Virus record (IMG/VR): IMGVR_UViG_2721755725_000010
Strand: one strand, 5' to 3'
From: a virus
Taxonomy: Duplodnaviria > Heunggongvirae > Uroviricota > Caudoviricetes
Length of the DNA stretch: 51,823 bases
Part shown: positions 45,001 to 48,000 of the stretch, one piece after another
Numbering within the stretch: position 1 is the stretch's first letter
Layout: each line of letters begins with the position of its first letter
Made by a program: the position numbers

Positions 45001-48000
45001 TTCATCTGTGACACGCTGAACATCGATGTTCGGGCGCTCTTTCAAAGCCCAGAATGATTCAGTGATTAATATCGTCGCCTGCTCCTGTGTCATTCCTGGT
45101 CGACATATCCAGGCATCCAGAGCCTCACGAGCCTGTTCAGGAGTGATTTTCATTGTTCAACCGCCCCGCCCGCTTCGTCTTACGATATTCGTCATAAACC
45201 TTGGGATCATACAGAAGCTCGCCGCCAGATGCCTCCTGTAGACGCATCGCGCGACCTTCAGGAACCAGCTCTTGCCATTGAGAAACAGCAGATGGGTCAA
45301 CGCCAGCAGCTTTCGCTACTTTGGCTTTCGTACCGTAAAAATTAATTACGTCTGATTTAAACATCGCACCTCCAATATTGAGTTTTCTCAAAGCTAATCA
45401 CTCAAGGAATCTCAAGTCAAGGGTTATTAAGATATCTAAATATGAACGAGAAAACTTTAGGTCAACGCATTAGAGAAAGACGTAAGCAGGTAGGCTTAAG
45501 TCAAAACGGTTTAAGCAAAGCTGCTGGCGTATCTGGCTCATCAATTTCATTATGGGAAAGTGACCATACAGCCCCGCGTGGGCAAAATTTGCATCGCCTC
45601 GCCGAGGTATTGCAATGTTCACCAACCTGGATACTGTTTGGCGACGAGGACAAAACACCAGCTCCCCCTGTTTCACTCGATAGTGCCTTAGACTTATCGG
45701 AAGATGAGTTAGAGATGCTGCGTTTGTATCGCGCACTTCCTAAATCAGAGCAACAAGCACAACTCAGCGAACTCCGCGCCCGCGTTGAGAATTTTAATCG
45801 CCTGTTCACCGAGCTATTAGAGGCTCGCAAACGCAACAAGCATCAATAATCATCCCTTCACAAAATTTTAAAGCCTTACATTTCAATGTATTGGCTTTAT
45901 CTTGCGCCAATACTTGAGTTTTCTCATCAAAAAATCTTGACGAAAAATAATGAGAAAACTAAATTACCTCCATCAACACACCGCACGGTGTTCTCAGCAA
46001 ACAGTTCCGCTACCCCGGCGTTAAGGGGAAATGAGGTCAGCATGGATACTATCGATCTTGGCAACAGCGAATCTCTGGTATGTGGCGTGTTCCCCAACCA
46101 GGACGGTACGTTCACCGCGATGACATATACCAAAAGCAAAACGTTTAAAACCGAATCTGGCGCGCGTTGCTGGTTAGCCAGAAACACTGACTGATGAGGC
46201 TGACGATGGAATTTAAAGATTTACCGTCTGATGTACAGAAAACAGCAGCTCATACATTGCATTCTGTGCTGCGAGAAATCGGGAAAGATATTGCAAGCGA
46301 GCCAGCAAAAGATCTGGCCCGGAAAATCAAGACCGCTTTCGTTGAGCTTTATAATGTTGGCACTGACTCTGAAACTGTCGAGACCAAGACCGTAAGTTCA
46401 CCAATATTCTCACTTGAGCCAGGCGTATTAGCAGGTGAAATGTGCACCGAGATTTCCAGCGAACTGCTTCCGGTAATACGAGAAGCAATTTGCCGTCGCG
46501 GTTTGGATGGAAGTTACGATCATGACGTCCTGCAAGTTCTCAGGACAATGGTGACTTCACTGGGGATTTGATCCCTGCGTCCTCTAACCTTTTGATATAG
46601 CGGTCCTCCAAGAAGCGGTAAATTTTGTCGAAATCATCTTTCCCCTCTGGTTTATTCAGAGGATTACAGGACCCGTAAGTAGCGGCATACATTTCAACCG
46701 TTTTATCAAAAATATAAGAGACAAATTCTTCTTTAGTCATATAGATTTCCTTCTTGGTTATTCGGAATAAGAAGGATACCACCTCGCCTGACGTGGTTAA
46801 AAGCAGGCACACAACACGAAAGCGCACGGCGAAGTTCGTCTCACTGTACGGTGTCGTTAAATTTAATTCGACCGTGCGCTTCCGGTTGTGGCAACCCGCG
46901 AAATGGCGCGGCGGTAAGTATGGCGGGGTTATTCCTTCCCCGTTGAGGACACCGGGTTGTCAGGTTGACCATACGCTTAAGTGACAACCCCGCTGCAACG
47001 CCCTCTGTTATCAATTTTCTGGTGACGTTTGGCGGTATCAGTTTTACTCCGTGACTGCTCTGCCGCCGTTTTTAAAGTGAATTTTGTGATGCGGTGAATG
47101 CGGCTAAGCGCACGCGGAACAGTTAAAACCAAAAACAGTGTTATGGGTGGATTCTCTGTATCCGGCGTTAATTGTTAACTGGTTAACGTCACCTGGAGGC
47201 ACCAGGCACTGCATCACAAAATTCATTGTTGAGGACGCGATAATGAAAACGTTATTACCAAACGTTAATACGTCTGAAGGTTGTTTTGAAATTGGTGTCA
47301 CTATCAGTAACCCTGTATTTACTGAAGATGCCATTAACAAGAGAAAACAAGAACGGGAGCTATTAAATAAAATATGCATTGTTTCAATGCTGGCTCGTTT
47401 ACGTCTGATGCCAAAAGGATGTGCACAATGAATTCAGCATTTGCGCTTGTTCTGACAGTTTTTCTTGTTTCCGGAGAGCCAGTTGATATTGCAGTCAGTG
47501 TTCACAGGACAATGCAGGAGTGTATGACTGCAGCAACCGAACAGAAAATTCCCGGTAACTGTTACCCGGTCGATAAAGTTATTCACCAGGATAATATCGA
47601 AATCCCGGCAGGTCTTTAAAACAGTTCCGTAATAAATATCCGGTTTCATTCTTATATGCCAGCAATGGCAGGGATTTGTTCATCCTTAAATCTGTCATGA
47701 GGTTAAAACAAAATGAGTAAAGTCTTTATTTGCGCCGCTATTCCTGACGAACTGGCAACAAGGGAAGAAGGCGCTGTGGCTGTAGCCACAGCCATTGAAG
47801 CTGGCGACGAACGCCGTGCTCGAGCAAAATTTCACTGGCAGTTCCTGGAACATTATCCGGCTGCTCAGGACTGCGCTTATAAATTTATTGTCTGCGAGGA
47901 TAAACCTGGCATACCCCGCCCTGCCCTCGATTCATGGGATGCTGAATATATGCAGGAAAACCGCTGGGATGAGGAATCCGCTTCCTTTATTCCGGTCGAA

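Follow-up and report, generated by a model that had tools for sequence, protein, structure and literature searches.

Whether a copy of a small regulatory system that is found in a viral sequence record is a working one, in which prophage and host it resides, and what the structured sequence just ahead of it might be for, are the questions raised by IMG/VR record IMGVR_UViG_2721755725_000010, a stretch of 51,823 nucleotides (nt) assigned to the Caudoviricetes (hereafter, the window). At 47016-47619 it carries the gene of the small RNA (sRNA) DicF, followed by those of the division inhibitor DicB and of YdfD. The reading proposed here is that these positions belong to a Qin-like lambdoid prophage, located beside rspB in the chromosome of enterohaemorrhagic Escherichia coli (EHEC) O111:H8, and make up the dicF-dicB-ydfD segment of its early-left (dicB) operon, and that the segment would operate, by homology, as its counterpart in Qin, a prophage of E. 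coli K-12, does; we put the probability of this reading at a little over nine in ten. All parts of the segment are identified and intact, the RNA folds are conserved, and the operators and promoter are arranged accordingly. The system itself is already known, and the pathogen lineage that carries it has already been sequenced.

The dicF-dicB-ydfD segment of an O111 prophage

A near-exact DicF sequence with its terminator had been noted at 47016-47068 in a preliminary description of this DNA, which proposed an Rfam search as a check. The search, run over the whole window, confirms the identity: family RF00039 matches positions 47017-47068 on the plus strand over its full model (1-52), with 72.5 bits against a gathering score of 48 (E = 3.9e-14). 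Since the model omits the first U, the 53-nt RNA corresponds to 47016-47068. It lies in a DicA-type operon of a lambdoid prophage, between ydfA-type genes and dicB, and is identical to K-12 dicF (NC_000913.3, 1649382-1649434) at 52 of 53 positions, the sole difference being the last base, which is changed from C53 to G at 47068. Mutations of the seed region, which had been named as grounds for doubt, are absent, positions 1-52 being unchanged; these hold both the 5' and the 3' pairing regions of the characterised K-12 RNA (regions according to PMC5069750). Over 46880-47260 the window differs from the K-12 Qin locus at 3 of 381 aligned bases, one of them within DicF. The terminator hairpin pairs 47031-47037 with 47061-47067 and is followed by a run of five U (U5) at 47069-47073, and the minimum free energy (MFE) structure of the RNA is the same as for K-12 (-16.6 versus -15.9 kcal/mol). 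A simple terminator scan missed this terminator, the loop of which is longer than 8 nt. Transcription in K-12 is said, going by the title of Faubladier 1990, to terminate at the DicF terminator. Harm to the terminator by the C53G change was considered and ruled out, given that the Rfam consensus leaves this base unpaired and that the MFE fold stays as it was. An exact match to the 60-nt sequence carrying G53 was found in 891 complete-genome records of E. coli (3,055 for the K-12 version), so that G53 is a common natural allele and not damage. A ydfABC-dicF transcript of 1,146 nt agrees with an end at the DicF U-run (PMC10448788).

The two genes described downstream of DicF were recovered at the positions given for them, both on the plus strand. 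The first, dicB (47243-47431), codes for a protein of 62 amino acids (aa) that is identical to K-12 DicB at 62 of 62 positions (100%) and is matched over its full length by Pfam DicB (PF05358; 136.8 bits, cut-off 27) and above the cut-off by NCBIfam NF049927 (132.8 bits, cut-off 100). The second, ydfD (47428-47619), codes for 63 aa, with a full-length match to Pfam DUF1482 (PF07358; 92 bits, cut-off 25) and 62 of 63 residues (98%) identical to K-12 YdfD, position 6 being A here and V in K-12. Its start does overlap the dicB stop, as had been observed, the ATG at 47428-47430 and the TGA at 47429-47431 forming an ATGA, and from this overlap ydfD appears to be translationally coupled to dicB. YdfD is a lysis protein, and is cited as such in the reference list of the literature on DicF. 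DicB blocks division via MinC and inhibits inner-membrane phage-receptor proteins (PMC10448788, PMC6832061).

From 27000 to 51823, the window is 100% identical to the chromosomes of EHEC strains of serotypes O111:H8 and O111:H-, for example E2855, and the stretch 46700-47750 is 100% identical also in O111:H- 11128. In the identical O111 genomes the integrase gene is followed by rspB, which is the chromosomal site of Qin in K-12. RefSeq annotates dicB and ydfD on the identical O111:H8 genomes; under DicF, the spacer that separates it from dicB, and the conserved RNA described below as module A, the RefSeq annotation of the identical O111 genomes, made with the Prokaryotic Genome Annotation Pipeline (PGAP), holds no feature, though DicF exceeds the Rfam threshold. 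Five places in E2855 match a 60-nt DicF query. The segment is by no means confined to these strains: of the 5,426 complete E. coli genomes, 4,753 hold homologues of the 1-kb stretch 46700-47750, the median number of places in a genome being two, and the dicF-dicB-ydfD module is also present on the isolated temperate phages HannyBb, mEp460_ev081, Tritos and PhiR42_1, the record of Tritos having DicF annotated. A further match was seen in the 254-kb jumbo-phage record of Aeromonas phage AP1 (MT713136.1), near the end of which 247 bp (249906-250152) are 100% identical to positions 47006-47252 of the window, that is, to DicF and the spacer; contamination with E. coli DNA or a chimeric assembly seems a likelier source of this piece than real biology.

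Upstream of the segment lies an immunity switch of the DicA/DicC type. The presence of a dicA-like repressor gene had been presumed in the preliminary description, and one is found at 45442-45849 on the plus strand, coding for 135 aa and matching the DicA subfamily of NCBIfam (NF007257) with 239.4 bits (cut-off 101). It forms a divergent pair with a dicC-like gene for a Cro analogue of 75 aa (45137-45364, minus strand), which matches the DicC subfamily NF007282 with 165.3 bits (cut-off 130) as well as Pfam P22_Cro, and the two have predicted operators in common. The repressor is 57% identical to K-12 DicA and the DNA of the immunity region has diverged; judged by its sequence, the pair represents an immunity allele other than that of K-12. 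A pattern search for the 14-bp palindrome TTGAGTTTTCTCAA gave three matches in the window, where 0.46 would be expected by chance. The first (45378-45391) lies between dicC and dicA, the second (45914-45927) just upstream of the -35 hexamer and the third (45950-45963) over most of the -10 hexamer of a sigma-70-like promoter, TTGACG-17-TAAATT, which the promoter scan predicts at 45937-45965 on the plus strand. This dicBp-like promoter stands downstream of dicA, where dicBp stands in K-12, and we infer from this layout that the palindromes and hexamers act as operators and promoter.

The first gene of the operon is a homologue of ydfA (DUF1391; 46042-46194, plus strand), identified from the RefSeq annotation of the identical O111 genomes and from phrog_751, with about 93% DNA identity to K-12 ydfA as estimated from the alignment. 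In place of K-12 ydfB/ydfC there is an open reading frame (ORF) of 121 aa (46206-46571, plus strand) with a full-length match to phrog_33007 (271.8 bits) and no Pfam or NCBIfam match. A second ORF of 66 aa, annotated as hypothetical in RefSeq, is convergent with the operon (46540-46740, minus strand; full-length match to phrog_34441, 170.1 bits); its 3' end overlaps the 121-aa ORF by 32 nt, and the promoter scan found no convincing promoter for it. Both of these PHROG families are of unknown function. Homology with K-12 is lost over the 121-aa ORF, and identity resumes at about 46855.

At the other end of the segment, the neighbouring exonuclease and integrase genes mentioned in the preliminary description are both intact and supported by Pfam, and together with the excisionase gene between them they form an uninterrupted series on the plus strand. 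The exonuclease (823 aa, 47713-50184) matches the Rv2179c-like domain with 225.8 bits at residues 642-813 and phrog_2082 over its full length, and is the intact counterpart of the K-12 pseudogene ydfE, which is cut there by the insertion sequence (IS) IS2. The excisionase (50257-50508) matches DUF1233 with 108.1 bits. The tyrosine integrase (50543-51823, the ORF opening at 50528) is assigned by Arm-DNA-bind_2 and Phage_integrase and by the RefSeq annotation of the identical genomes, and its stop codon ends on the last base of the window. As regards the architecture of the exonuclease, the known domain (Rv2179c-like 3'-5' exoribonuclease) matches only its last ~180 residues, the first ~600 including a long acidic Q/E-rich linker and a CxxC...CxxC motif.

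Processing of the DicF precursor and state of the operon

Two species of DicF have been described, one of 190 nt with a 5' end made by ribonuclease (RNase) III and one of 53 nt with a 5' end made by RNase E (PMC10448788, Ragunathan et al. 2023, confirming Faubladier et al. 1990). A 190-nt species with its 3' end at 47068-47073 of the window would begin at about 46879-46884, which is where the RNase III cut is placed; the coordinate reported for it in PMC10448788 ('813/814') follows a numbering that could not be mapped to the window. These positions fall in the 3' arm of a long imperfect hairpin of about 24 bp with small bulges (46807-46892, plus strand), and this hairpin is therefore most likely the RNase III substrate from which the 190-nt species arises. 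It has an MFE of -38.3 kcal/mol (z = -3.9), as good a value being reached by 0 of 200 shuffled sequences, and its K-12 counterpart folds alike, the differences being absorbed as G-U pairs. This most likely location of the RNase III site is new. As to RNase E, its cut-site preference is RN/WUU (the slash marking the cut), with which the 5' end of DicF agrees. The site, at 47014-47018 on the plus strand with the cut between 47015 and 47016 (AUCAAU/UUUCUGG), is identical to that of K-12, and the dependence of the 53-nt species on RNase E is taken from PMC10448788. The sequence determinants of DicF processing are the same here as in K-12.

In the preliminary description, a different element, an extended stem upstream of DicF, had been suggested as the processing site of the precursor. 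The stem is real. It consists of the inverted repeat GGGTTGTCA / TGACAACCC at 46954-46962 / 46982-46990, a perfect 9-bp stem that can be extended to about 12 bp, is conserved, and lies 25 nt upstream of the 5' end of DicF, all of which would suit a site of nuclease cleavage. That the hairpin 46954-46990 is itself such a site is quite unlikely, since it coincides with neither of the published sites and lies between the two, inside the 190-nt species: the length of this species puts the RNase III end about 75 nt upstream of the stem, in the 46807-46892 hairpin, and the RNase E end is 25 nt downstream of it, in an A/U-rich single strand. A stem of 9-12 bp is also short for RNase III. By energy alone this one is unremarkable (-20.1 kcal/mol, z = -2.0, equalled by 8 of 200 shuffles), and in P1, cdtI and phages carrying the Shiga toxin (Stx) type Stx2c it occurs as one arm of a larger fold.

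If the homology with Qin of K-12 is a guide, the operon would work as follows. The DicA-like repressor, bound to the 14-bp palindromic operators, would keep the dicBp-like promoter (about 45937-45965) off, and a lapse of repression, whether sporadic or linked to stress, would give rise to a polycistronic RNA that covers the ydfA homologue and the cargo ORFs and continues into a series of structured RNAs. A cut by RNase III in the 46807-46892 hairpin would then yield the ~190-nt species, and one by RNase E at 47015/47016 the 53-nt DicF, the 3' end of which would be set by its own intrinsic terminator. Together with Hfq, DicF would pair with the ftsZ, xylR, pykA and manX mRNAs and, in EHEC, with that of pchA. 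Transcripts that read through the terminator would carry a strongly folded leader, the coupled dicB and ydfD genes, and then those of the exonuclease, xis and int; DicB would block division via MinC and inhibit the inner-membrane phage-receptor proteins, and YdfD would lyse the cell. With respect to the targets, ftsZ is known to be repressed by the 3' part of DicF and xylR by its 5' part, with Hfq (PMC5069750), pykA and manX being further targets (PMC5069750, PMC10448788), and in EHEC the sRNA activates pchA, and hence the locus of enterocyte effacement (LEE), at low oxygen (PMC7873438).

Several points weigh against this picture. Expression, processing and targets in the O111 strain are deduced from the literature. 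The C53G allele may have an effect on termination or Hfq binding, and the immunity allele differs from that of K-12; a tblastn search of the window found no homologue of the K-12 antirepressor Rem. The ydfB/ydfC genes have been swapped for other cargo, including the convergent 66-aa ORF which, if transcribed, could interfere with read-through to dicF. Finally, the prophage is probably defective, because of IS copies around the Q antiterminator gene and a broken replication gene. Three identical frameshift pseudoknots of the IS3 family (ALIL) are found at 5876-5992, 40115-40231 and 42950-43066, and the window therefore holds three IS1203/IS629-like copies, two of which stand in inverted orientation on either side of Q (~41314-42003) in a composite-transposon-like fashion; near Q, a gene of the replication region (DUF977) is frameshifted and truncated. 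Taken to the extreme, these traits, namely C53G, a foreign immunity region and replaced cargo, would mark this copy as a silent relic whose DicF-like sequence is never made, an explanation also favoured by the apparent defects of the prophage, the missing Rem homologue and the convergent ORF. We consider it very unlikely. The promoter, the operators and the DicA/DicC pair all look intact at the sequence level, the processing determinants are identical to those of K-12 from 46855 onward, and the exact C53G allele has been kept in the 891 records mentioned above, while dicB, ydfD and the exonuclease, xis and int genes are all open. Moreover, Qin of K-12 is the more decayed of the two prophages and yet makes DicF (PMC10448788).

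Structured RNAs on either side of DicF

A blastn comparison of 46800-47245 with phage genomes at sensitive settings indicates that this non-coding stretch is modular across phages. The part at 46885-47007 occurs without DicF, at 82-89% identity, in phage cdtI, Stx2c phages, 2H10, PhiR40_1 and Salmonella phage F1055, and 46896-46992 is found at 77.6% identity in P1-like phages, and the region of ~47063-47227 stands by itself in further phages, P7 and D6 among them. The stem discussed above belongs to the first of these parts, as one arm of a conserved RNA outside Rfam, which is a new finding. This RNA, here called module A, is a multi-helix element of ~115 nt (46885-46999, plus strand) delimited by alignment, covariation and RNAalifold. 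A closing helix P0 (46885-46891/46993-46999) encloses the hairpin H1 (46896-46900/46907-46911), a helix P2 (46912-46915/46951-46954) that carries the hairpin H2 (46924-46928/46938-46942), and the hairpin H3 (46955-46962/46982-46989), which is the stem 46954-46990. In addition, the linker between H1 and H2 (GUAUGG, 46918-46923) is complementary to the loop of H3 (CCAUAC, 46969-46974), making a candidate pseudoknot.

The evidence for this structure comes from a scan of viral contigs with the H3 loop motif, which gave 120 loci with 69 distinct sequences, 30 diverse ones of which were aligned, the loop motif being fixed by the search pattern. On these 30 homologues, 93.9% of the cells are paired in the proposed structure, versus 32-55% when the partners are slid, and 8 pairs are changed on both sides, versus 1-3 in the slid controls. 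The covariation score was reached by no shuffle, in a control that ignores phylogeny, and the double changes outside H2 represent few independent events, mainly in the P1 clade. RNAalifold recovers H1, P2, H2, H3 and part of P0 unaided. In the linker-loop pairing, the position that varies reads U-A in 25 homologues, C-G in 3 and U-G in 2, and an H3 pair (alignment columns 107/131) reads U-A in 25 and C-G in 5, neither of them ever being unpaired (n = 30). For H2, at least 7 versions of the stem were seen, all folding as a hairpin with a pyrimidine-rich loop. Module A can accordingly be modelled as a conserved multi-helix RNA, probably with a pseudoknot. A scan of genome contigs for the pseudoknot partner, with the linker pattern GGCGCGGCGGYAAGYATGG, gave 8 real loci among 120 and no new variants, the rest matching by chance in GC-rich genomes. 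When the 190-nt species is folded whole, its MFE structure departs from the one supported by covariation, and it was not used.

Module A belongs to no Rfam family at E values up to 1 (scan of 46750-47260), and neither do the corresponding loci of P1, cdtI and F1055; this permissive scan also took in the loci of 75/02 Stx and PhiR5_2. The idea that it could be a tRNA- or tmRNA-like element was rejected, as ARAGORN finds nothing in the window and there is no match to the Rfam tRNA clan. Homology with the put RNAs of phage HK022 was rejected as well: blastn-short found no more than chance matches of 9-13 nt with the HK022 immunity region, and the number of helices differs, put having two stem-loops in about 70 nt and module A four or five helices in about 115 nt. 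The two are alike in position only, each being a structured RNA in the leader of an early operon, ahead of terminators that are to be read through (PMC9378689).

In every lineage module A is followed by a hairpin and a U-run, the sequence of which differs between the DicF, cdtI, P1, long F1055 and other types. The 5' strand of P0 (46885-46891) is also the end of the 3' arm of the RNase III hairpin, so that cleavage by RNase III could conceivably free this strand to close module A. It is tempting to see in 46885-46999 an independent, conserved and probably pseudoknotted cloverleaf-like module, shared as one device by the repressor-controlled early-operon leaders of Qin-like, cdtI/Stx2c-type, Salmonella F1055 and P1-like phages and placed directly before interchangeable cassettes of seed plus terminator, DicF being one of them; we put this forward tentatively, as a possibility with rather less than even odds. 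That 46800-47240 instead codes for small minus-strand proteins is hardly credible: mechanical ORFs do exist there on the minus strand (46841-47014, 46977-47132 and 47104-47379), and the records of cdtI (orf40), 2H10 (gp36) and vB_EcoS-640R1 have hypothetical proteins placed over the homologous stretch, but compensatory changes keep the helices and stem sequences are swapped wholesale with the hairpin retained, DicF is an experimentally characterised RNA (PMC10448788, PMC5069750), RefSeq calls no gene at 46800-47240 in the identical genomes, and the gene calls over module A and the sRNA cassette are probably spurious because the conservation is of the RNA type.

On the other side of DicF, the spacer that also forms the leader of dicB (47076-47242, plus strand; module C) is structured in its turn, as indicated by its fold, an inverted match and a sub-threshold similarity to STnc100. 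The region 47069-47250 has an MFE of -65.5 kcal/mol (z = -5.6), and the spacer is closed by a helix of 47078-47096 with 47207-47225 (a 19-nt inverted match), which in the MFE model extends toward the Shine-Dalgarno sequence of dicB. As modelled, this long helix looks like another possible substrate of RNase III. The spacer scores 34.5 bits with the STnc100 family (RF02076), below the gathering score of 47 and over part of the model (21-154), and its STnc100-like outer helix is kept through different base pairs, the two being related at most distantly. Comparably weak STnc100 matches immediately precede kil in two Stx phages and tciA in P1. Elsewhere in the same prophage, between the region of the Q antiterminator and the lysis genes, two Rfam sRNAs on opposite strands directly adjoin each other, namely AgvB (anti-GcvB; 39147-39208, plus strand, 96.5 bits) and STnc100 (39209-39399, minus strand, 143.3 bits).

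Among the 5,426 complete E. coli genomes, the DicF 60-mer was found at 6,298 places in 3,947 genomes, module A (121-nt query) at 8,966 places in 4,315 genomes, and the spacer (167-nt query) at 10,420 places in 4,633 genomes, counts that are only roughly comparable since the sensitivity of megablast differs with queries of 60, 121 and 167 nt.

Relation to known systems

The closest known system is the dicBF operon of Qin in K-12 MG1655 (dicA, dicC, ydfABC, dicF b1574, dicB b1575, ydfD b1576, ydfE, intQ), which occupies the same site beside rspB and has the same gene order. The two prophages have identical or almost identical versions of the RNase III hairpin, module A, the RNase E site, the terminator and the dicB leader. 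The differences are that the O111 prophage has its own DicA allele and its own operator sequence, that it carries the 121-aa ORF and the convergent 66-aa ORF where K-12 has ydfB/ydfC, and that its exonuclease, xis and int genes are intact, whereas ydfE and intQ of K-12 are pseudogenes cut by IS2. In EHEC O157:H7 (strains Sakai, EDL933 and 86-24) there are several prophage-borne copies of dicF, which are said to raise the dosage of DicF (PMC7873438, PMC5069750). The link between DicF and virulence has been shown in O157:H7, whereas the background here is O111:H8.

More distant relatives share some of the RNA elements and not others. In P1, the ban promoters, which C1 controls, are followed after about 35 nt by the start of module A, part of which is labelled 'dicF-like region' in the P1 record. 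Its helices are kept through compensatory changes, and it is again followed by a hairpin and a U-run; these are, however, without the seed or terminator sequence of DicF, P1 having its own unrelated terminator hairpin (GCCCAUC...GGUGGGC), and downstream there are tRNAs, tciABC and ban instead of dicB. The Stx phages Shigella phage 75/02 Stx and Escherichia phage PhiR5_2 resemble the O111 prophage in having a hairpin and terminator at the position of DicF, an STnc100-like leader with ~78-84% identity, a division inhibitor and an exonuclease. They differ from it in that the inhibitor is Kil instead of DicB and that the body of the sRNA is another one (29.5 bits with the DicF model in PhiR5_2, which is sub-threshold). 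The RNase III hairpin is kept in PhiR5_2, module A is lacking, and an N antiterminator is present.

DicF, DicB and YdfD are textbook examples of host manipulation by prophages, and a further intact copy in O111:H8 does no more than raise the dicF copy count of the pathotype. What the locus brings out beyond this is that DicF sits in a chain of separately shuffled structured RNA modules, namely the RNase III hairpin, module A, the sRNA cassette and the folded leader, two of which are more widespread in E. coli than DicF itself. If module A is indeed a shared device, it could serve a family of phage sRNAs as a scaffold for processing and stability, it could act in cis to allow RNA polymerase past the sRNA terminator and on into the toxic genes, or it could be a regulator in its own right via the pyrimidine-rich, anti-Shine-Dalgarno-like loop of H2. 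Should it control either processing or terminator read-through, this would explain how phages gate the toxic division inhibitors that are encoded downstream of an sRNA terminator.

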